This document shows positions 8,246 to 18,145 of a DNA stretch of 21,487 nt, piece by piece. Position numbers and translations under genes: made by a program. Every line of letters starts with the position of its first letter. Within the stretch, counting starts at the first letter, position 1. The stretch covers positions 1 through 21,487 of the IMG/VR virus record IMGVR_UViG_2703718857_000003, one strand, 5' to 3'. The notes under the pieces were generated by a model that saw only the letters and a program-made list of their open reading frames with translations, had not been told where the DNA came from and searched no databases. This DNA comes from a virus (taxonomy: Duplodnaviria; Heunggongvirae; Uroviricota; Caudoviricetes).

Positions 8246-8418
8246 TGTCAGGAGTCCTGAATAGTGATTAGAGGAGTCACATGTCGGCATCAGTTTCCCG
8301 ACGATGCGCATCCTCCGCCATCAGTCCCGGATGGCTTATCACTGACACAACAGCACCTTAGCGAATCGCGGGGCGCGACTCAGTAGCCTTGCCGTGTATT
8401 CATCACGGCGAGGTATTC
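8246..8418. promoter_or_regulatory. Divergent late-promoter region between O and P (expected Ogr-dependent)
   Basis: Position only: the intergenic space between divergent O and P start codons is where P2 carries its O- and P-operon late promoters. I could not identify the activator dyad with confidence. Confidence 0.3.
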
Positions 8419-9656
8419 ATGACCATCACCACAGACACCACTCTTTTACACGACCCGCGTCGTCAGGCGGCGCTGCTGTACTGGCAGGGGTTTTCCGTGC
8501 CGCAGATTGCCGCCATGTTGCAGATGAAACGCCCGACAGTGCAGAGCTGGAAACAGCGCGACGGCTGGGACAGCGTTGCCCCCATCAGCCGTGTCGAAAT
8601 GAGTCTGGAAGCGCGGCTGACCCAGCTCATCATCAAACCACAGAAAACCGGCGGTGACTTCAAGGAAATTGACCTGCTGGGACGCCAGATTGAACGACTG
8701 GCACGGGTCAACCGCTACAGCCAGACCGGCAACGAGGCAGACCTTAATCCGAACGTCGCTACCCGTTCTGGTCGGGTGAACTGTTCAACCGGGGACGCGC
8801 CAGCGCCGCCGAACGCGTGGAAATCGACGTCAGTCATAACGCACTTGCCGGAGGTCTTCTCTGTGCGGACGGCCAGTGGCGGCAGATTGTCACCATTGAG
8901 GACGCCCTGAAAGGTGGCTGCACGCTGTTCGACATTGAGCAGCTTAAACGCGAAAACAGCGCCGACGATTTTAAAAACCTGTTCATGTGTGAATTTGTTG
9001 ACGACAAGGCGTCGGTGTTCCCGTTCGAGGAGCTGCAACGCTGCATGGTCGACACGCTGGAAGAATGGGAAGACTATGCGCCGTTTGCCGCCAATCCGTT
9101 CGGCTCACGTCCGGTATGGATTGGTTACGACCCGTCACACCGTGGCGACAGTGCCGGATGCGTGGTGCTGGCACCGCCGGTGGTGGCCGGTGGCAAATTC
9201 AGAATACTTGAGCGTCACCAGTGGAAAGGCATGGACTTTGCCACCCAGGCTGAATCCATCCGCGAACTCACCGAAAAATACAACGTCGAATACATCGGTA
9301 TTGATGCCACCGGCCTCGGTGTCGGCGTGTTCCAGCTCGTGCGCTCGTTCTATCCCGCCGCGCGCGATATCCGCTACACGCCGGAAATGAAAACCGCAAT
9401 GGTGCTCAAGGCAAAAGACGTTATTCGCCGTGGCTGTCTGGAATATGACGTCAGCGCCACCGACATCACCAGCTCGTTTATGGCTATCCGCAAGACCATG
9501 ACCAGCAGCGGACGCAGCGCCACCTATGAGGCCAGCCGCAGCGAGGAAGCCAGCCACGCCGACCTCGCCTGGGCGACCATGCACGCCCTGTTAAATGAGC
9601 CACTCACCGCGGGTATCAGCACTCCGCTGACATCCACCATTCTGGAGTTTTACTGA
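8419..9656 (+). pseudogene. P: Large terminase (ATPase) subunit P, internally deleted and frameshifted
   Basis: The N-terminal part (MTITTDTTLLHDPRRQAALLYWQGF...NPNVA) is in one frame and the C-terminal RNaseH-like nuclease part (YPFWSGELF...VWIGYDPSH...IGIDATGLG...HADLAWA) is in another; the frames overlap between 8658 and 8910. The total span is ~412 codons versus ~590 for P2 gpP, and no Walker A/B ATPase segment is present. Confidence 0.7.
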
Positions 9657-10684
9657 TGAGCAAGAAAAAAGGGAAAACACCGCGACTAGCGGCAAAAAAA
9701 ATGACCGCCAGCGCCCCGAAAATGGAGGCATTCACCTTTGGTGAACCGGTGCCGGTACTCGACCGCCGTGACATTCTGGATTACGTCGAGTGCATCAGTA
9801 ACGGCAGATGGTATGAGCCACCGGTCAGCTTTACCGGTCTGGCAAAAAGCCTGCGTGCTGCCGTACATCACAGCTCACCGATTTACGTCAAACGTAATAT
9901 TCTGGCTTCAACGTTTATTCCGCACCCGTGGCTTTCCCAGCAGGATTTCAGCCGCTTTGTGCTGGATTTTCTGGTGTTCGGCAATGCGTTTCTGGAAAAG
10001 CGTTACAGCACCACCGGTAAGGTCATCAGACTGGAAACCTCACCGGCAAAATATACCCGCCGTGGGGTGGAAGAGGATGTTTACTGGTGGGTGCCGTCCT
10101 TCAACGAACCGACAGCCTTCGCGCCCGGCTCCGTATTTCACCTGCTGGAGCCGGATATCAATCAGGAGCTGTACGGCCTGCCGGAATATCTCAGCGCCCT
10201 TAACTCTGCCTGGCTGAATGAGTCGGCCACGCTGTTCCGCCGCAAGTATTATGAAAACGGCGCACATGCCGGATACATCATGTACGTCACCGATGCCGTG
10301 CAGGACCGCAACGATATCGAAATGCTTCGCGAAAACATGGTTAAGTCGAAAGGCCGCAATAACTTTAAAAATCTGTTTCTCTATGCCCCACAGGGGAAAG
10401 CCGACGGCATTAAAATTATCCCGCTCAGTGAAGTGGCAACGAAGGACGATTTTTTTAATATCAAAAAAGCCAGCGCCGCTGACCTGCTGGACGCGCACCG
10501 CATCCCCTTTCAGTTGATGGGGGGCAAGCCGGAGAACGTCGGGTCGCTGGGTGATATTGAGAAAGTGGCAAAGGTCTTTGTCCGCAATGAGCTTATCCCG
10601 TTACAGGACAGGATCCGCGAGATAAACGGCTGGCTCGGTCAGGAGGTCATCCGCTTTAAAGATTACAGTCTAGAATCTAATTAA
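9656..10684 (+). CDS. Q: Portal protein Q
   Basis: 342-aa ORF, close to the 344 aa of P2 gpQ; start overlaps the P stop (ATGA); synteny P-Q next to cos. Confidence 0.85.
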   Translation: MSKKKGKTPRLAAKKMTASAPKMEAFTFGEPVPVLDRRDILDYVECISNGRWYEPPVSFTGLAKSLRAAVHHSSPIYVKRNILASTFIPHPWLSQQDFSRFVLDFLVFGNAFLEKRYSTTGKVIRLETSPAKYTRRGVEEDVYWWVPSFNEPTAFAPGSVFHLLEPDINQELYGLPEYLSALNSAWLNESATLFRRKYYENGAHAGYIMYVTDAVQDRNDIEMLRENMVKSKGRNNFKNLFLYAPQGKADGIKIIPLSEVATKDDFFNIKKASAADLLDAHRIPFQLMGGKPENVGSLGDIEKVAKVFVRNELIPLQDRIREINGWLGQEVIRFKDYSLESN

Positions 10685-10694
10685 GTACCCTTAG

Positions 10695-10712
10695 CGCCGT
10701 CTCCAGACGGCG
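10695..10712. terminator. Bidirectional hairpin between convergent Q and the cargo operon
   Basis: Perfect 7-bp GC-rich stem CGCCGTC/GACGGCG with loop TCCA, 11 nt after the Q stop and between the two convergent gene ends; followed by T-rich sequence on the plus strand. Confidence 0.45.
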
Positions 10713-10779
10713 TGATTCTATGCAATCCAGGCAAGATTAACCCCCAACACCTTCAATTACTATATGGTTTAATAGAAAT

Positions 10780-11469
10780 TCAATCTTTAACTTCAATATA
10801 TGAAGAAGAAAACCATATAGATTTTTTCCCATTTATGTATTTAGAAACAGGCGAGCCATCTTCGTTCATTGCCTCAGCACTAAATGTTACATAATACATT
10901 CCTTTTTCTTTTGTCGAAACAAGATAGTTCAAGCGTCTTTCGGCAGAGATAGGAACGGATATATCATATAAAGGTATATTTTTAGCTTTTCCTTGCGAGC
11001 TACTTTCTTCATTAAGAACAGCCAACTCCTCATAATAATTTGGATAAAAAACTTCCGTAGCGACTTGCTTTGCACCGGCCGATAAAACACGACTAACAGC
11101 AAGGGACTTGTTATTAAGCTTCACATAAATTCGCTCATTACTGTTATTCCTAATAGTTACAATAGGCTTTATATAAAACACATCATCGATTTTAACAACA
11201 TTAACGTCAACATTAAAAAATGTCGATTCTGTATTTCTAATTCTATTTCTTAACTCTATAAGATCAGCTTCTGCCTTATCCCTTTGGTGCAAAACATCAA
11301 AAGTATATCCTCCCCACACAAGTGTCAAAACAGCGCACAATGACATCACGACGTTATTAAACTGATCGTGTGTTCTGTAAATATCTTTGAATTTTAAAAT
11401 TAATAATAGACATGCTATGAATAGCATGCCTATTATCAGCCAGTGTTCTTTTACAAATTCAAAGTTCAT
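10780..11469 (-). CDS. Uncharacterised membrane protein with two N-terminal TM helices and a beta-rich soluble C-terminal domain (cargo)
   Basis: 229-aa ORF; hydrophobic segments WLIIGMLFIACLLLIL and VVMSLCAVLTLVWGGYTF, then a Ser/Asn/Lys/Val/Tyr-rich soluble domain. AT-rich codon usage; start 2 nt after the stop of the upstream ORF. No family recognised by eye. Confidence 0.6.
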   Translation of the reverse strand: MNFEFVKEHWLIIGMLFIACLLLILKFKDIYRTHDQFNNVVMSLCAVLTLVWGGYTFDVLHQRDKAEADLIELRNRIRNTESTFFNVDVNVVKIDDVFYIKPIVTIRNNSNERIYVKLNNKSLAVSRVLSAGAKQVATEVFYPNYYEELAVLNEESSSQGKAKNIPLYDISVPISAERRLNYLVSTKEKGMYYVTFSAEAMNEDGSPVSKYINGKKSIWFSSSYIEVKD

Positions 11470-11471
11470 AG

Positions 11472-12554
11472 TTAGTCACTCGCATGCCTCGCATCACCAT
11501 CTTCAGGGAAATTGATCCCCTGTCCGATCTCACGGTTCGTTGGACGAGCAGAAACAAAGCCTCTATTTTGTCTTTTTAAACGCAACTCTAGAACTTGAGA
11601 AACTCTATCAAAGTTTAATCCATCCATTGCAACCTCTTTTTTCCCTTCAATATGAGATCGAAGTTCCTCACTTATACGATTATCAACCGTTGAAGCGAAG
11701 GCTACATCATGATTAAAAATGGCCCCCATAATTAACATAAACGCAATTCCGGCCTTTCTATTATTTGTTTTAAATTGTAGCCAAACATCCCCCGGAGACA
11801 TCAACATTTGTTGAGCAGTCAAGGATAACTCTCCATTATTAGAAAGTCTTTCCATCTCAAACTGAACAACTTCGTTTGTATACTCGCCATCAAACTCTTC
11901 GCCAATTAATAGCGCAAGTACCTGCACTCTATCGACCAGCTCAGCCAGCTGCTTAAGAGTATGATGCCGAATGGCTTCTGCTTGCTCGACTCTTAAGCTA
12001 GTACAGAAAATATTATCCGTTATAAAGAATGACATTAACCAATGCAGTACTTCTTCTGACTTCCCGCCCAAAGAGAATACGGTCTGGTATGCAGTAAACG
12101 ATTTCTGAAGAGCTAATGGAATCTCTCGTCTGCGAACTGGCTCTCCCCATGTGACTCTACGTCTTACATGAAACCCTTCATTATTACCTAAACATTCACG
12201 CTCAAAATACGCGGAAGATGCAATAACTCCAGGAACAACCATATCACCTGACAAAGTGAAAACAACATCACCGACCTGCATATCTATGAGGAAATTTTCA
12301 ATTTGGGTATGAATATTTCTTGAACCAATAGTATCTAACCCATCAACCTTTTGATTAATATTTTCATGGTTAATTTCATCATTAAAGTCAATTTGATCTG
12401 GACTTAACCTATCCAAGTGAGCAGTAGCAACCATATTGCGTTCAAGGAAGTCTGCAAAATATCTATACTTAATCCCAGGTCTAACGACCCAACACTTTAC
12501 ATTTAAATCAACATGTTGTACTGAAATAGCTCTTTGTGATGAAGTTCCAAGCAT
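11472..12554 (-). CDS. Uncharacterised soluble protein, first gene of the two-gene cargo operon
   Basis: Long AT-rich ORF; 361 aa from the first ATG at 12554, or 366 aa from the TTG at 12572. No Walker, HNH, DxD-nucleotidyltransferase or other motif recognised by eye. Confidence 0.55.
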   Translation of the reverse strand: MLGTSSQRAISVQHVDLNVKCWVVRPGIKYRYFADFLERNMVATAHLDRLSPDQIDFNDEINHENINQKVDGLDTIGSRNIHTQIENFLIDMQVGDVVFTLSGDMVVPGVIASSAYFERECLGNNEGFHVRRRVTWGEPVRRREIPLALQKSFTAYQTVFSLGGKSEEVLHWLMSFFITDNIFCTSLRVEQAEAIRHHTLKQLAELVDRVQVLALLIGEEFDGEYTNEVVQFEMERLSNNGELSLTAQQMLMSPGDVWLQFKTNNRKAGIAFMLIMGAIFNHDVAFASTVDNRISEELRSHIEGKKEVAMDGLNFDRVSQVLELRLKRQNRGFVSARPTNREIGQGINFPEDGDARHASD

Positions 12555-12778
12555 AGCTGATCCATAATTCAAAAAATTTTACGCATTTTACATATTTTTA
12601 TTTAAGACTCTAGAGCGTTAGGAATGATGAATCGCTTCAACAGATTATTTTTTGTGCAGATAGTGTGCTTAAACCAACTCATCGTAACGAAAGCACTCGC
12701 CTGAATCGTAAAGATAACATCTCATGACTCGATTCATAGGCTAATAGTATTATGCAATGGTCGTTAATGGAGCGCGCA

Positions 12779-12797
12779 GTGCTTTCCCCGCCTCGCC
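12779..12797. other. cos site: 19-nt cohesive-end sequence GGCGAGGCGGGGAAAGCAC (read on minus strand)
   Basis: Exact match, on the minus strand, to the 19-nt cohesive-end sequence as I recall it for phage P2 (not verified against a database). Followed towards the Q side by TGCGCGCT and then AT-rich cargo. A GC hairpin plus T-run (12797-12820) abuts it on the A side. Confidence 0.6.
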
Positions 12798-12939
12798 CGC
12801 CCGCTTCGTGGGGCGGTTTTAATGCAGATGCATTATGAGCCCTGAGCTGCGCCTAACGTGACACAGTTCACGAGAAAAATAGGAATTATCAAATGCAATT
12901 TCATGCAGATAGAGAGGCATGAGATCCCGAAGCTTATAT

Positions 12940-14292
12940 TCAACCCTCTGCCGAAATATTTCTTTGGAGAAATGCTCTAATTTTTTGCCTGAAAGCCTCA
13001 CATTCATCAGGCTTTAACCTCTCAAGGTATTCAAAAATCCTAGTTTCATCCCAGCCGTTGTTATAGGTTTTCACTACCCCTCGATAAACTTGCTTATCAA
13101 GTTTATCGTTACCTCTAGTTGTAACTCTCGGGATCGATTCATCTTGGCCGTATGCTTGATAGAAATCCTTCTCAACGCTTTGGAAAGGTATGCATAAAAT
13201 ATTTTCACCTCGAGCATACCTTTGACCTAATTGATCTCCGTCTAACACTGAGATCACATTCTGTTGAGTCGTGAGAAAGCTCTCTCTCTCATTACGACGC
13301 ATTAAATCAATGACATTAGTTCCTCCACCAACATATATTATTTTATATTCGTAGAAGTAATCATTCCCAGGAGCATTAATTATATATTCTAAGAAATTTT
13401 GCAGAACTTCATCTTCAGTAAGAATGTACTTATCCCATCCTTTAAATCCAAAAAGCGTACTTTTTATATAATTATATGATCGATTTGTAATTGTAGTTCC
13501 AGCATCACCTTCGCACATATAGTACAATTCATCATCATTCAGCGTTTGCATTAAAGCAAGTGAATGTGTTGTGAATACAATATTCACCGAGTGTCTCTGA
13601 CAATATTTCCTTAGCACTGCTATAAGATGGACTTGCGCCGAAGAGTCTAGTGATATATCTATCTCATCTATGACAATGAATTTTCTTTTGAGCTCAATCA
13701 TTCTAAATAAATTCAAAATAAAATACTCACCCGAGCTAAAGTAATCCTCCCTTATGTATGTTCCGTTCTCATTCAATCTGAAATAGAAAATTTCATTTTT
13801 TACAGAAAATGCTTTAAGATTATTGTAAGAAGAAGACTGATATACCTCATTGAGTATATTTATCAAATCCTCGGGAACGCTATAGCTTTCAAACGCAATA
13901 CTTTTTCTAAGTTCAGTATCAATTTTACTAAGTGTTGGGAAGTTATTGAACCTCATTCCATGAGGAATGGGCAACTCGACATAAAGATTGGATTTTATAT
14001 CTGCTGGAATTATTTGCTTAGTATCTATTACCTTCAAATTCTCATCATAGACATATACTATATCTTGATCATTAATATTATATACTATACTACTGTCAGG
14101 ATTGAATATATATCTAGAAGATGTCTTTATGAATGTATCTGCTGATTGTAAATTTTTAATTGCTTTGATTAGCGTTGTCTTTCCAGCACCGTTCTTTCCT
14201 ACAATGCAAGTCAGTTTATTTTCAGAAAGATCAATAGCAAATGACATATGTTCAACATGCTGGATTTTCGAGATCTCAATATTTATTTTCAT
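12940..14292 (-). CDS. OLD-family ABC-type ATPase with C-terminal Toprim-like domain (retron-associated effector candidate)
   Basis: 450 aa; Walker A GKNGAGKTT near the N-terminus, Walker B FIVIDEIDISLD, H-loop-like VFTTHS; C-terminal ILTEDEV and VLDGDQLG resemble the Toprim Glu and DxD motifs. Start ATG is 1 nt after the RT stop, indicating translational coupling. Confidence 0.7.
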   Translation of the reverse strand: MKINIEISKIQHVEHMSFAIDLSENKLTCIVGKNGAGKTTLIKAIKNLQSADTFIKTSSRYIFNPDSSIVYNINDQDIVYVYDENLKVIDTKQIIPADIKSNLYVELPIPHGMRFNNFPTLSKIDTELRKSIAFESYSVPEDLINILNEVYQSSSYNNLKAFSVKNEIFYFRLNENGTYIREDYFSSGEYFILNLFRMIELKRKFIVIDEIDISLDSSAQVHLIAVLRKYCQRHSVNIVFTTHSLALMQTLNDDELYYMCEGDAGTTITNRSYNYIKSTLFGFKGWDKYILTEDEVLQNFLEYIINAPGNDYFYEYKIIYVGGGTNVIDLMRRNERESFLTTQQNVISVLDGDQLGQRYARGENILCIPFQSVEKDFYQAYGQDESIPRVTTRGNDKLDKQVYRGVVKTYNNGWDETRIFEYLERLKPDECEAFRQKIRAFLQRNISAEG

Positions 14293-14293
14293 T

Positions 14294-15283
14294 TTAATTT
14301 ACATTCTTGTAAAAAAGCATATCGACAATCGTATTTCCGTATTTTCTCTTTAGCTTATCGAGATAACTCTTATCAATTGTGTTTATATGATTCAAAAGAC
14401 CAGAAACTGTATTAACGCCCTTTTCCAAGATCTCACTATCATTCAATCCGCTAGTTTTAACCTTAGGATCTTTTATTATAGAATCTATAAATTTATCTTT
14501 ATCCGTTACATAAAAATGAATCAAATGCTCAAGCTTTCTTTTTATTTTAATATCAACAGAGACTATCTGAGACGGTAAAATAACCATCCCCAGCAGCTTA
14601 ATCTTACTGCCTTTTTTAATCAATTTAGTTTTTGCTGAGTTTAGTTTGAAATGTCCCTTCCCAAACTCACCCAGCAGGTCACTTACTACAGAATGAATAT
14701 TCTCAAAGCCCTCATCATTTTCAGAGGAAATAATAATATCATCTGAATAGCGTGTGAATATATATTCATGGTTAATACAATATTGCTGCATCTCAACATC
14801 AAAGTCATATAAACATGCATTGCTGAAAGCTGGTGATGTCGGGAACCCTACAGGCAACGAATTATCGATAATAATATAATCTAAAATTTTATCCAAGTGT
14901 ATATTTAAATCGGAAATGGGAACGTTCGATAAGTTATCAACTAAAACTGATCGTGCATATTCACGAGTTATCGATGGGAAAAAGCTTTTAATATCAGTAT
15001 TGAAGAATATCTTACTACAGGCGTGAAGTTTTACTGCATCATAAGTGCTGCTTCCTTTTCTATACGAAAACACAACATCCTTATTTACTTTCAAGTATGA
15101 AAGAACAAATTCATTTATGAATTTGTGATACTCTTTTAGTTTAGAAGTGGGCTCAGCAATTAACCTTTCATCAAAGGTTATAAATTTAGTTTGTTGAAAT
15201 GGTTCAAACGAAAGAAAGTTTTGAAAGGAATCTTTTTCGAAGAATGCAATATTGAAGGCTTTTTCGAGACTAAGGGGTTTCAT
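14294..15283 (-). CDS. Retron-type reverse transcriptase
   Basis: 329 aa with RT motifs in order: NTDIKSFFPSI (domain 2), LPVGFPTSPAFSNA (domain 4), FTRYSDDIIIS (YxDD catalytic box). Motif order and spacing parallel retron Ec86 RT as I recall it (NIDLEDFFPSL / LPQGAPSSPKLANL / YTRYADDLTLS); size is typical of retron RTs. Confidence 0.8.
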   Translation of the reverse strand: MKPLSLEKAFNIAFFEKDSFQNFLSFEPFQQTKFITFDERLIAEPTSKLKEYHKFINEFVLSYLKVNKDVVFSYRKGSSTYDAVKLHACSKIFFNTDIKSFFPSITREYARSVLVDNLSNVPISDLNIHLDKILDYIIIDNSLPVGFPTSPAFSNACLYDFDVEMQQYCINHEYIFTRYSDDIIISSENDEGFENIHSVVSDLLGEFGKGHFKLNSAKTKLIKKGSKIKLLGMVILPSQIVSVDIKIKRKLEHLIHFYVTDKDKFIDSIIKDPKVKTSGLNDSEILEKGVNTVSGLLNHINTIDKSYLDKLKRKYGNTIVDMLFYKNVN

Positions 15284-15289
15284 CGTTGG

Positions 15290-15440
15290 CTGAGCTTTTG
15301 TTTTTTGAGTTGAATGGATTCTAAGATGAATGCTTTAACTCTCAGTCTTTCCTCACCCCAGACACCCTCCCTTCGCAGGCTTTACTTCTTGTACATACCT
15401 TCTCTCGAAAGAGAAGGCAGTACAAGAGCAACACTATATA
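15290..15440 (-). ncRNA. Candidate retron msr/msd non-coding RNA region (boundaries uncertain)
   Basis: Non-coding stretch immediately upstream of the RT containing a long interrupted hairpin at 15387-15427 (8-bp stem TCTTGTAC/GTACAAGA, internal loop, 7-bp stem CCTTCTC/GAGAAGG, loop TCGAAA), as expected for an msd stem. I could not identify a1/a2 flanking repeats by eye. Confidence 0.3.
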
Positions 15441-15456
15441 AAGGCCTGTAGAGGCC
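15441..15456 (-). terminator. Possible intrinsic terminator downstream of A (minus strand)
   Basis: 5-bp GC stem GGCCT/AGGCC with loop GTAG, followed on the minus strand by TTTATATA. The stem is short, and it could instead be part of the ncRNA. Confidence 0.25.
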
Positions 15457-15609
15457 AACATTTATGACTGGAGATGCTCCTAGTCGTTGGCATAAAAACA
15501 CTTTAAACCAGATTATGAGCATTTACAACATTTCAAGCCGTCGAACGCAGCCCCAATCAGAAAAGAACTCACACGGCCATCATAACATCATGATTTAGAT
15601 GGATATAAA

Positions 15610-17880
15610 TCACCCTTCATGCTTCACCCACTCGTCCGCTATCGGGTATACAAATCTTTTTTCGCCATAAACCACTATTCCGCCACGAGCCAGCGCCTGA
15701 AGTTCCCACCGCTGCGGCGTGATACCCTGCTGCGCCAGTTCGAAGCGGATGCGCGGAATCTGAGCCCTCTCGGCTTTTGTCATTCGCCCTGATGGTGCTA
15801 TCTGATGCGATTTTAATGGCTCATCGCTTCTTTGCTGTCGATTTTGCTGCGGCGCGCCGTGTTTTAATGCACTCCTGAGCACCGTCACAACTTCGGGGTC
15901 ATCCCATGCAATAACCCCATCATCGACAAGATTTAGCACCGCTGCGGCATGCTCAGACGGCGTAGGTGTCATAACTGGATCGCCACCGTCGGCAAGCTTT
16001 CCACAGTTATTGACAGGACTCCGAGGCGCGGCGATGCCGCTTTTTAAAGTCAAAGGCTCAACGACCGGAACTTTCGGCACAATGCGCCAGTCCGTCGTTC
16101 TGGTGATATGAATATGACGCGCGCCGAGATGCGGCGCGTAAATGCCGACCACTCTCTCGACTTCTTCCTCGTACTCGTTAACGTCATCCGACGGGCTACG
16201 GGCGACCCTGACAGTCTGACAATCGCGCGGGACATTTGCCCCGCCCTGCGCGCTGATATACAACGCAAAATCACCACTGTCTGCAGCGGCGCGTGCAGCC
16301 TCGACGCGCTCGTCAAACTCATCAGCAATGCTGACGCCGCGAGGCAATTTGCGTAGTTCACGGTAAGCCCCCATTGTCGGCAGACCAACCGTTTTAAATT
16401 GCGGAATGCGCCACGTTGACGCCCATGCGGTAACAGCCGCAGCAGTATCTTTCAGCGGCCTGCCGGTATCGTTATCGAGCTGACCATCCAGTGCATAGCC
16501 ATCGATGTTTTTTGAGATGTATTTCGCGATATACCCCGCAGCACCGCCCCGGTTAAGATGTTTTGCCTGAAAACGGTTTCGCGCGGCTCCTCTTTCGTCT
16601 CCATCCTCTTTGAGCGCGTAGCGACGCATGATTTCAATAATCTGGTTACGCTGGCGTGGATTACAAAAAAGCATCATATGCCAGTGCGGCGTTCCGTCGT
16701 GGTGTGGCTCGACGACACGCAAACCGTAGACCTGTAAATCATTATCCTTGAATGCCGTGCGCATCAGGCTCCAGATATGGCAGAGATAACGCTGCGCATC
16801 CTTTGGATTAAATGCCTCATCGTTCCAGCCGTGATTTAGCTGGACGGTTTTACTTTCGCCTTTTCTGACCTGACGTGTCGGGTGATACTTTGACGGCGCG
16901 GTCAGCGTGATAAACATCCCCACATCACCCTCTGCGGCGGCGTAACGCTCAATACCGGCGATGGTGTTCATCAGCTCCATCCGGCGAATTTCTGGATTAG
17001 AAATACTGCCCATCACCTTACTGATAAGGTCGATGCGCTCGCCGGTTTCCTTGTTTTCAAGGTCACACGATTTAAGAAATTCCAGATTTGCCTGGCGGCG
17101 CGCACGCACATCACGAATGGCATGTTTACTGGCATAAGGAGAACGGTCTTTATTGACCTCCCCGACAGCAATCAGTAACGCCTCATGCCAGCGCATACGC
17201 TGGCCTTTAAGCTGATGAGTCCACCACTCATCGTTAAACAGGCGGGCAATGGCAGAATATGCCTGCCTCGTGGTCATCTGCCCTTTACGGTATTTTTTCC
17301 AGTAAAGCGGGGAAATATTGAAAGCACGTGCAGCGCCAGCAACATGACCATAGAGGTGAGCCTGCGCCTCATCCGTAAACAGCGATTCTTTTTCGCCATG
17401 TGCATCAACCCAGGCATCGCAGAGTTCCTCATACATCATGAAAAGCTGCGATGAGATACGGGCAGCAAACTTTTTCAGCTCCTTGTCATTCATCCCCGGC
17501 AGGCGCGCATACTGGTCGCGCTCTGCCAGAAACAGCAACGACGCGTCGGTGTTCATTTCATGGCGCTGATTCACACGCTCAATGCGCGGCCATAAACGAC
17601 GCTGAAAAGTGGATGTGAGGAAATAAAACCCGTGCACCGGGCTTTTATTGCGCCGGATGTAGTCATAGCGTGAAGTAAACAGCGAGCGCAAAAAGTAAGG
17701 CAGGCGGTTAATCGTGGATAAAACACCTTGCACCTGACGCATCTCGTCACGTGTAAGGGGTCTTTCGCGCCCGACGGCCTCGCGTGGCGCGTTCCATGCA
17801 TAAGCACCGATAAACGCCTTACCGGTGCCTGCGGCAAATGCTGACGGAGGGACAAAACGCCCGGAGGCTTTAACGGCCAT
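15610..17880 (-). CDS. A: Replication initiation protein A (rolling-circle initiator, P2 gpA-like)
   Basis: 756 aa from the ATG at 17880 (MAVKASGRFVPPSAFAAGTGK...), close to the ~761 aa of P2 gpA; synteny B-small ORFs-A. The maximal ORF extends to 17922. Confidence 0.8.
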   Translation of the reverse strand: MAVKASGRFVPPSAFAAGTGKAFIGAYAWNAPREAVGRERPLTRDEMRQVQGVLSTINRLPYFLRSLFTSRYDYIRRNKSPVHGFYFLTSTFQRRLWPRIERVNQRHEMNTDASLLFLAERDQYARLPGMNDKELKKFAARISSQLFMMYEELCDAWVDAHGEKESLFTDEAQAHLYGHVAGAARAFNISPLYWKKYRKGQMTTRQAYSAIARLFNDEWWTHQLKGQRMRWHEALLIAVGEVNKDRSPYASKHAIRDVRARRQANLEFLKSCDLENKETGERIDLISKVMGSISNPEIRRMELMNTIAGIERYAAAEGDVGMFITLTAPSKYHPTRQVRKGESKTVQLNHGWNDEAFNPKDAQRYLCHIWSLMRTAFKDNDLQVYGLRVVEPHHDGTPHWHMMLFCNPRQRNQIIEIMRRYALKEDGDERGAARNRFQAKHLNRGGAAGYIAKYISKNIDGYALDGQLDNDTGRPLKDTAAAVTAWASTWRIPQFKTVGLPTMGAYRELRKLPRGVSIADEFDERVEAARAAADSGDFALYISAQGGANVPRDCQTVRVARSPSDDVNEYEEEVERVVGIYAPHLGARHIHITRTTDWRIVPKVPVVEPLTLKSGIAAPRSPVNNCGKLADGGDPVMTPTPSEHAAAVLNLVDDGVIAWDDPEVVTVLRSALKHGAPQQNRQQRSDEPLKSHQIAPSGRMTKAERAQIPRIRFELAQQGITPQRWELQALARGGIVVYGEKRFVYPIADEWVKHEG

Positions 17881-18145
17881 ATGAGCCAAAAGCCTCTGAA
17901 CAACGCTTGCTGAGTTGCTCAACCTGCGCGTTTAAATCAGCAAAAGACTTTGCGCTTCCGGTCAGAATATCGTGATGCATCAGGCCGGAAACGAGCTGGC
18001 TTAATTTCGGGTAATAACCAACCACCGCCAGCCATTCCTGACCGGCGTTTTTACCGCTTTCAGCTCTCTTTTTCTCGTGGAGAATAAACTGAAAGCTGTC
18101 ACTGGTAACGACATAACGTTCGCCAATTTCAATACGAATACTCAT
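17870..18145 (-). CDS. Small early-region protein (P2 orf83-position)
   Basis: 91-aa ORF tightly packed between A and the zinc-finger ORF, start overlapping the upstream stop. Confidence 0.5.
   Translation of the reverse strand: MSIRIEIGERYVVTSDSFQFILHEKKRAESGKNAGQEWLAVVGYYPKLSQLVSGLMHHDILTGSAKSFADLNAQVEQLSKRCSEAFGSYGR

Follow-up and report, generated by a model that had tools for sequence, protein, structure and literature searches.

A predicted PUA-like reader protein and a co-inherited membrane protein form an autonomous cassette, and a candidate defence module, beside cos in a P2-like prophage

Introduction

The type IV restriction enzymes of the VcaM4I type, in which a PUA-like domain is fused to an HNH nuclease, read 5-hydroxymethylcytosine (5hmC) and restrict phage T4gt (PMC6765204). 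In Metis, also known as PUA-Cal-HAD, a PUA-like domain senses m6dAMP (N6-methyl-dAMP), which is released as the phage degrades the host DNA, and the type II form of this system (MisB-MisC, the same as Rst_Hydrolase-3TM) has a transmembrane (TM) effector and is found as cargo of satellite hotspots in Escherichia coli. The present work deals with a two-gene operon, whose genes are here called A and B, that lies between positions 10685 and 12778 of a 21,487-nt stretch of tailed-phage DNA (IMG/VR record IMGVR_UViG_2703718857_000003; hereafter the window, meaning the whole stretch). Protein A is predicted to carry a PUA-like domain and protein B is a predicted inner-membrane protein.

Cargo of P2-like phages gathers in a cos-proximal hotspot between gpA and gpQ, from which several defence systems were validated experimentally by Rousset et al. 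2022 (PMC9122126). Table S5 of the same study lists a 'hypothetical + hypothetical' pair, WP_024234794 + WP_024234795, which corresponds to A and B, and there is no sign of this pair among the systems tested there. Both genes were also labelled 'Predicted novel defense gene' by DefensePredictor, with log-odds (A, 6.53; B, 5.18) above its strict cut-off of 4 (PMC13092281); in the main and supplementary text of that paper the pair is not placed among the 42 validated systems. Here we describe the operon by comparative analysis and structure prediction, and propose that it may be a defence module in which the reader domain of A would detect a modified base or nucleotide and signal through a clade-specific C-terminal domain to B in the inner membrane, a proposal to which we give an about even chance.

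A and B are inherited as one unit

Gene A (11472-12572, minus strand) encodes 366 residues from a TTG codon, or 360 from the ATG at 12554 that is used in the RefSeq annotation made by the Prokaryotic Genome Annotation Pipeline (PGAP; WP_024234794.1). Gene B (10780-11469, minus strand; 229 residues, WP_024234795.1) starts 2 nt past the stop codon of A, so that the cassette is compact, with 1.8 kb of coding sequence. Homologues of both proteins at 40-79% identity were found in many genera, and the comparison with an E. coli variant of 68-69% identity gave a ratio of nonsynonymous to synonymous substitution rates (dN/dS) of ~0.075 for each gene, with dS near saturation. By this sequence comparison, A and B are real genes under purifying selection and not chance open reading frames (ORFs).

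The search with A returned 47 clusters and the profile search for B 49, with 19 pairs located on the same longest contig. The pairwise identities of A and of B were strongly correlated over 21 matched pairs (r=0.90), and none of 2000 Mantel permutations gave a value as high. When the contexts of the close clade were inspected, the two genes were adjacent in all 8, with B 1-5 nt downstream of A. An earlier note on this DNA, made from its letters alone, had named co-occurrence in other genomes as a check on the pair, and strict adjacency and co-divergence provide it.

The pair is strictly co-inherited across Enterobacterales and Pseudomonas. Besides the prophage of the window, four further P2-like prophages of E. 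coli carry it, and in one more P2-like prophage it is flanked by cI and int. In E. coli it also occupies the accessory end of a satellite that resembles a phage-inducible chromosomal island (PICI). Pectobacterium has it in an integrase island that includes CcdAB, TacAT and AbiE, Serratia in an islet next to icd, and Pseudomonas next to a PifA-like KAP NTPase; a further copy was on a metagenomic contig. The mobile or defence-type contexts in which the two genes stay together are of six different kinds. The satellite variant (L025, E. coli ARS-C101, 12001-13760; 68-69% protein identity) is located at the far end of a ~15-kb PICI-like element with an integrase, a RepA helicase, PerC, ProQ/FinO and DUF4222, and a lambdoid prophage is the next element downstream.

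Such surroundings bear on a reading in which the pair would be an accessory without a role in defence, either an addiction pair of the toxin-antitoxin type or a factor of lysogenic conversion or envelope fitness. The Pectobacterium pair does lie among toxin-antitoxin systems (CcdAB, TacAT), its persistence in decayed prophages, described below, fits addiction, a periplasmic beta-sandwich protein such as B is predicted to be could serve the envelope, and ~55% of the DefensePredictor picks were not validated. However, a modified-base reader domain is atypical of toxin-antitoxin or envelope factors, the loci are ones with experimentally shown defence cargo, the neighbours include a retron, a PifA-like protein, AbiE and restriction-modification (RM) systems, and both genes have high machine-learning scores for defence. 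We consider a non-defence accessory rather improbable.

The operon is an autonomous cargo of the Q-to-cos gap

Relative to the P2 map, the P2-like prophage of the window is reversed, with the integrase and the phage genes C, cox, B and A on its right side and Q, P, O, N and M on its left. As the portal gene Q (9656-10684, plus strand, from the ORF list) ends at 10684 and cos starts at 12779, positions 10685-12778 are exactly the gap between them. The cos cohesive-end sequence itself (12779-12797) is of the P2 type, its 19 nt (gtgctttccccgcctcgcc, the reverse complement of GGCGAGGCGGGGAAAGCAC) being identical to P2 cosL in reverse complement. The gap measures 2094 nt in the window and 167 nt in P2, where the reference annotation places cosL at 1-19, the terminator tQ at 160-181, inside the gap, and Q at 187-1221. 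The G+C content (GC) is 37.0% in the operon versus 56.2% in the phage body. The earlier note had placed two genes in ~2.1 kb of AT-rich DNA between the portal gene and cos, and had given P2 only a short non-coding stretch there; the coordinates were exact and the P2 annotation agrees.

The operon has the properties of hotspot cargo, namely its position between gpA (15610-17922) and Q next to cos, the variable content of the site and the foreign base composition. Three arrangements of the hotspot were observed: the operon alone, the operon with a retron composed of a reverse transcriptase (RT) and a helix-turn-helix (HTH) protein, and the operon with a type I-B retron. The last is the case of the window, in which the retron that the earlier note had seen beside the operon was identified across cos by PADLOC matches to RT_I-B (E=6.5e-110) and ATPase-Toprim_I-B (E=3e-179). 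In Ec-U9-2 and EF7-18-58, the identical operon stands beside the RT-HTH retron, and in LR-71-1 and ET881 it is the sole cargo of the hotspot, with no retron. The A/B operon is autonomous and does not depend on the adjacent retron.

These comparisons also decide on a reading of the operon as a retron component or as an accessory of P2 packaging or of the portal, to which its proximity to the retron, cos and Q might point. The companion retron can be of a different type or missing, and the operon also exists outside P2-like phages; it is absent from P2 and from all 50,697 phage records searched, differs from the phage in GC content, and is separated from the retron by cos. The comparative data speak against this reading, which we regard as effectively refuted.

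The operon is intact in the EF7-18-58 and ET881 prophages despite the loss of P and part of Q, or of nearly all the structural genes, in which case an 84-nt remnant of the portal gene is all that is left. This suggests that the cargo is kept after the prophage decays.

Protein A has a predicted PUA-like domain and a C-terminal domain of unmatched fold

The hydropathy of A nowhere exceeds 1.6, its maximum being 1.57 at residues 269-287. The structure of A was modelled with AlphaFold2 on 45 homologues (predicted local distance difference test, pLDDT, 81.7; predicted template modelling score, pTM, 0.80). In the model, the N-terminal domain (residues ~10-190 in the 360-residue numbering; 11985-12527, minus strand) has a PUA-like fold of the EVE/YTH type, with the pseudobarrel present, and Foldseek searches against the Protein Data Bank (PDB) matched it to VcaM4I (probability 1.00), YTHDF2 (0.99) and Atu2648 (0.85). 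The best structural match is the domain with which the restriction enzyme VcaM4I reads 5hmC. The C-terminal alpha/beta domain (residues ~197-340; 11535-11966, minus strand) matched no known fold in the same Foldseek search of the PDB.

Sequence searches gave less. There was no useful match of A in NCBIfam or in a Pfam set that lacks PF28530, a sequence-profile search of the PDB with the family alignment gave matches at chance level only, and in PHROGs the sole hit was phrog_10226, a family of unknown function. In PADLOC, A matched the single-gene candidate PDC-S02 over profile positions 3-185 of 324 (E=2.5e-12); membership of PDC-S02 was rejected because the match is confined to the N-terminal domain. 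PGAP names WP_024234794.1 a 'DUF8426 domain-containing protein', and precomputed PF28530 matches exist for most homologues. Therefore, of the 'unrecognised soluble protein' of the earlier note, the second word can be kept and the first gives way to a named family with a predicted reader domain.

No HNH, PD-(D/E)XK, GIY-YIG or PLD nuclease was found in A by Pfam, PADLOC, NCBIfam or structure searches, and the structure searches returned reader-type domains or weak matches, none recognisable as a nuclease fold. A possible PD-(D/E)XK motif around PGD256 was dropped, as the candidate lysine is not conserved. The statement that neither protein has cyclase, nucleotidyltransferase, HNH or ATPase motifs, made before any search, was also the outcome of the PADLOC, Pfam, NCBIfam and PHROGs searches of both.

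Conservation differs between the two domains of the DUF8426 family

With the profile of A, 902 representative clusters were retrieved at E<=1e-3 and 68 at E<=1e-30, so that the DUF8426 superfamily amounts to ~900 representative clusters, counted at 50% identity. Most members have 340-400 residues and align over both domains. In A and throughout the superfamily, the match to the PDC-S02 profiles covers their first 155-185 positions, with E values down to 1e-21, and in 10 distant members it was again limited to this N-terminal part; therefore, the reader domain is common to both families and the C-terminal half is not. In the distant members P0126 and P0179 the N-terminal domain matched an internal segment of a REase_II profile.

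Residues W22, R25, F36, H46, D48, Q84, F88, D96, G109, R131/R132, W136 and H171, all of them in the reader domain, were invariant in 124 distant members, the level for W22, W136, F36, F88, R25, H46, D48, Q84 and D96 being at least 82% of the 124. These are taken to mean a universally conserved ligand site, as predicted from the alignment. In the C-terminal domain, only S253 and G255 were invariant across the 124 distant members. The positions R188, H198, K201, E205, D208, R209, Q248, Q249, D256, Q329 and N330 are invariant in the close clade and are not conserved outside it. As this polar surface of the C-terminal domain is kept only in the clade that carries B, it is a good candidate for the coupling of A to B.

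Protein B is probably a membrane protein with its bulk in the periplasm

In the AlphaFold model of B (pLDDT 85.9), a first TM helix and a short loop lead to a single long helix (residues 34-79), which comprises TM2 and a stalk and is followed by a beta-sandwich of a generic fold. TM1 (residues 9-27; 11389-11445, minus strand) has a hydropathy of 2.3 and is variable in the family alignment. It is followed by a segment (11233-11358, minus strand) with a juxtamembrane NN motif, TM2 (residues 38-57) and the stalk helix (58-79), and then by the beta-sandwich (residues 83-227; 10789-11223, minus strand), which is probably periplasmic. The model agrees with the earlier description of a 229-residue protein with two N-terminal TM helices and a beta-rich C-terminal domain, to which it must be added that TM1 is variable and absent in some homologues. 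No useful Pfam or NCBIfam match was obtained for B, and its family alignment also gave chance-level matches only in the sequence-profile search of the PDB.

TM1 is the only segment of B above a hydropathy of 1.6, TM2 being more weakly hydrophobic in the protein of the window. TM2 and its flanks are nearly invariant (NNxxxxLCAxxTxxWGxYTFDALxQRDKA), and the equivalent segment is the sole TM helix of the single-TM homologues; TM1 is missing from the partners of A in L016 and L015. The N-terminal tail of B is short and almost uncharged, and the end of TM1 plus the loop contains on average ~2.4 lysines and arginines. One true homologue (hhalign probability 99.9%), whose start lies directly after the stop codon of its A partner, has only the conserved TM helix, preceded by MRRRIRD, and another begins with MKK and has a 9-residue hydrophobic stretch ahead of the conserved helix. 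We infer that a single topology fits all the variants, one in which the juxtamembrane motif is cytoplasmic and the stalk and beta-sandwich are periplasmic, and this topology is probably correct.

A 16-nt inverted repeat of 94% complementarity (11403-11436; ATAATAGACATGCTAT / ATAGCATGCCTATTAT) lies inside the part of B that codes for TM1, at the same place as promoter-like matches to both strands.

An N-terminal anchor with a periplasmic domain, encoded in a prophage or a satellite, would also suit a superinfection exclusion (Sie) protein. HK97 gp15 and the lactococcal Sie proteins offer the comparison for a block of DNA entry from the periplasmic face of the membrane. B would act in this way and A would be its regulator or chaperone. 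Nonetheless, the known Sie proteins work alone, the strict co-inheritance and co-divergence of B with a 360-residue reader protein would be left unexplained, and the pair is also found in islands that are not of phage origin, so that we consider superinfection exclusion highly improbable.

Proposed role of the pair and evidence on both sides

The description of the operon as an anti-phage candidate is credible for an autonomous cassette in a hotspot position that recurs in defence-type loci and has high DefensePredictor scores. In the proposed defence module, A would act in the cytoplasm, where its PUA-like N-terminal domain would bind a modified base or nucleotide, the candidates being marks of the 5hmC, 5-methylcytosine (5mC) or N6-methyladenine (m6A) type carried by the nucleic acid of the entering phage, or modified mononucleotides that are released in the infection. 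The clade-specific C-terminal domain would couple this binding event to B, which would be an inner-membrane protein made of the conserved TM helix, the short juxtamembrane motif on the cytoplasmic side and the stalk and beta-sandwich facing the periplasm. B would execute or localise the response at the membrane, through the loss of membrane integrity (abortive infection) or through a block of DNA entry. A membrane-disrupting or entry-blocking effector is our first choice for B; in this scheme we infer the defence function, the identity of the ligand, the periplasmic orientation of B, the physical coupling of A and B, and which partner is the effector.

Several observations weigh against this proposal. 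No Pfam profile for EVE, YTH or ASCH matched A or the 45 family members at E<=1, so that the PUA-like assignment rests on the predicted structure. If the bulk of B is periplasmic, A could contact only ~12 residues of it in the cytoplasm, a slender basis for a coupling of the two. The pair is very rare: of 5426 complete E. coli genomes, 7 carry the P2-type variant and 1 carries the satellite variant, and tblastn searches with A gave no match in 50,697 phage or 72,556 plasmid records. About 55% of the units predicted by DefensePredictor failed validation in the assays of that study (PMC13092281). We found no experimental report of defence, toxicity or ligand binding for the pair in the literature, so that the word 'undescribed' in the earlier note is right for experimental validation and wrong for the listing of the pair, which both Table S5 of Rousset et al. 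2022 and the DefensePredictor tables already contain. Finally, one distant member of the A family without B adjoins a type II RM system, another has an EVE-domain protein and a group II intron nearby, and a third, P0113, is followed instead by an unrelated soluble protein of 392 residues (L022, 5148-6326), which may be an alternative partner of this DUF8426 member. A may thus act alone, and B would then be an accessory and not the effector.

Because the bulk of B is probably periplasmic and A-family proteins exist without B, a reversal of the roles is a serious rival, although an unlikely one. In an arrangement like that of Kiwa or Zorya, B would be an envelope sentinel or anchor and A the effector on incoming DNA: the periplasmic domain of B would detect the attack or place the complex at the site of DNA entry, the reader domain of A would recognise the phage DNA on its way in, which may be modified, and the C-terminal domain of A would block or damage this DNA. 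The size of the probably periplasmic domain fits such a sentinel. The A-family proteins without B keep both domains, which suggests an autonomous A, the closest PUA-like domains occur in type IV restriction enzymes as fusions with nucleases, and S253 and G255 of the C-terminal domain are invariant in the whole family. However, no nuclease or other enzymatic fold was detected in that domain, and most of its polar invariants are limited to the B-linked clade, unlike those of a universal catalytic site. Nor was there a PADLOC match to KwaA/KwaB or Zor proteins, and the beta-sandwich of B is generic, with no known phage-sensing relative.

With A as the reader and B as the membrane output, or with envelope sensing that directs the reader onto incoming DNA, the pair might even be the first representative of a so far unrecognised class of immune modules, in which a PUA-like reader of modified nucleotides with a new-fold C-terminal domain is wired to a periplasm-facing inner-membrane protein and, in the first case, detection of a modified base in the cytoplasm leads to a response at the envelope. 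This we put forward tentatively, as a possibility that we would not bet on. If true, DUF8426, some of whose members occur alone and others with different partners, would be a sensor family with interchangeable outputs.

Other features of the locus

The right-hand edge of the cassette is cos. The similarity to P2 on the Q side of cos ends ~9 nt past the cohesive end (12771-12797 versus P2 1-30). Cargo of the P2 hotspot can therefore occupy the Q side of cos, to within ~9 nt of the cohesive end. The LR-71-1 prophage has the same ~9-nt arrangement on the Q side and is apparently intact, which suggests that little Q-side sequence is needed beside cos.

The AT-rich region upstream of A (12573-12778, minus strand) is presumed to contain the promoter. 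A scan of the region for promoters and terminators gave counts no higher than in shuffled sequence, and the alignment of the upstream regions of the pair from four contexts revealed no conserved promoter. Q and B converge, and a GC-rich hairpin with a perfect 8-bp stem (inverted repeat I4, 10695-10712) lies between their ends. It has the same position as tQ in P2 and a different sequence, and no U-tract. It is possible, judging from position and sequence, that it serves as a bidirectional terminator. The sole terminator-like site given by the scan was a GC-rich stem-loop followed by TTTT at 12797-12816 on the plus strand, abutting cos on the retron side.

The retron locus (12940-15600; 33% GC) comprises the RT gene (14294-15283) and the ATPase-TOPRIM gene (12940-14292). 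An Rfam scan of the whole window at the gathering threshold gave no match, so that the noncoding RNA (ncRNA) of the retron was not identified in this way; it presumably lies upstream of the RT gene, at ~15284-15600.

The gene for the large terminase subunit, P (8389-9656), has suffered an internal, frame-shifting deletion of 535 bp with its junction at 8758/8759, as revealed by comparison with the otherwise identical prophage of E. coli Ec-U9-2, in which P has 1773 nt, and it is now split into two half-ORFs (8389-8910 and 8817-9656). Therefore, the prophage of the window is probably defective in packaging (cryptic).

In the island L022, the 392-residue neighbour of P0113 gave no family match, and a D...EVK-like motif was read in it by eye. 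An AbiO/Nhi/PDC-S41-like helicase and a MazG-like gene were found in this island as well.

Comparison with known systems

The pair shares the gpA-gpQ locus of the P2 hotspot cargo (old, tin, PARIS, retrons and others), and no homology to any validated cargo of this hotspot was found. It lies on the Q side of cos and the retron on the other side. The systems of the 2026 preprint on P2 and P4 (Crouga, Bandua, Aernus, Toga, Reve and Hailong) were considered and set aside, their architectures being unlike that of A/B. We found no paper that mentions DUF8426, and PDC-S02 only in annotation lists. PDC-S02 has the sensor domain in common with A; however, its C-terminal half (profiles of ~300-346 positions) was never matched, and it is a single gene, whereas A and B are a strict two-gene unit.

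A cytoplasmic component with a small membrane protein, borne on prophages or defence islands, is also the design of RexAB, of CBASS with Cap15 and other TM effectors, of Kiwa and of Zorya. The analogy with RexAB and CBASS/Pycsar drawn in the earlier note was supported by no homology, with no PADLOC or Pfam match of the pair to RexA/RexB or to CD-NTase or pyrimidine cyclase components, and the beta-domain of B most likely faces the periplasm, unlike those effectors. In Cap15, the ligand-binding barrel is cytoplasmic, whereas the globular domain of B is probably periplasmic.

Metis resembles the pair in the PUA-like domain, in the logic of a modified-nucleotide signal and, for type II, in the TM effector. 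However, Metis has a calcineurin-like or HAD phosphatase, and the Pfam searches gave neither for A/B; homology to type II Metis (hydrolase + 3TM) was rejected, since the PADLOC and Pfam searches of the pair gave no HAD domain and no sequence homology to it. MisC has three TM helices and an intracellular pocket and is itself the sensor, whereas B has one or two TM helices and a probably periplasmic beta-sandwich. The type IV enzymes VcaM4I and TspA15I (EVE-HNH) are fused to a nuclease, in place of which A has a C-terminal domain of unmatched fold, and the modification-dependent restriction enzymes have no membrane partner, whereas A has an obligate one. If the pair is active, it would give a function to DUF8426 and would add to the defences triggered by modified bases or nucleotides, such as type IV restriction and Metis/PUA-Cal-HAD, a new type of output, namely a membrane protein with its bulk in the periplasm.

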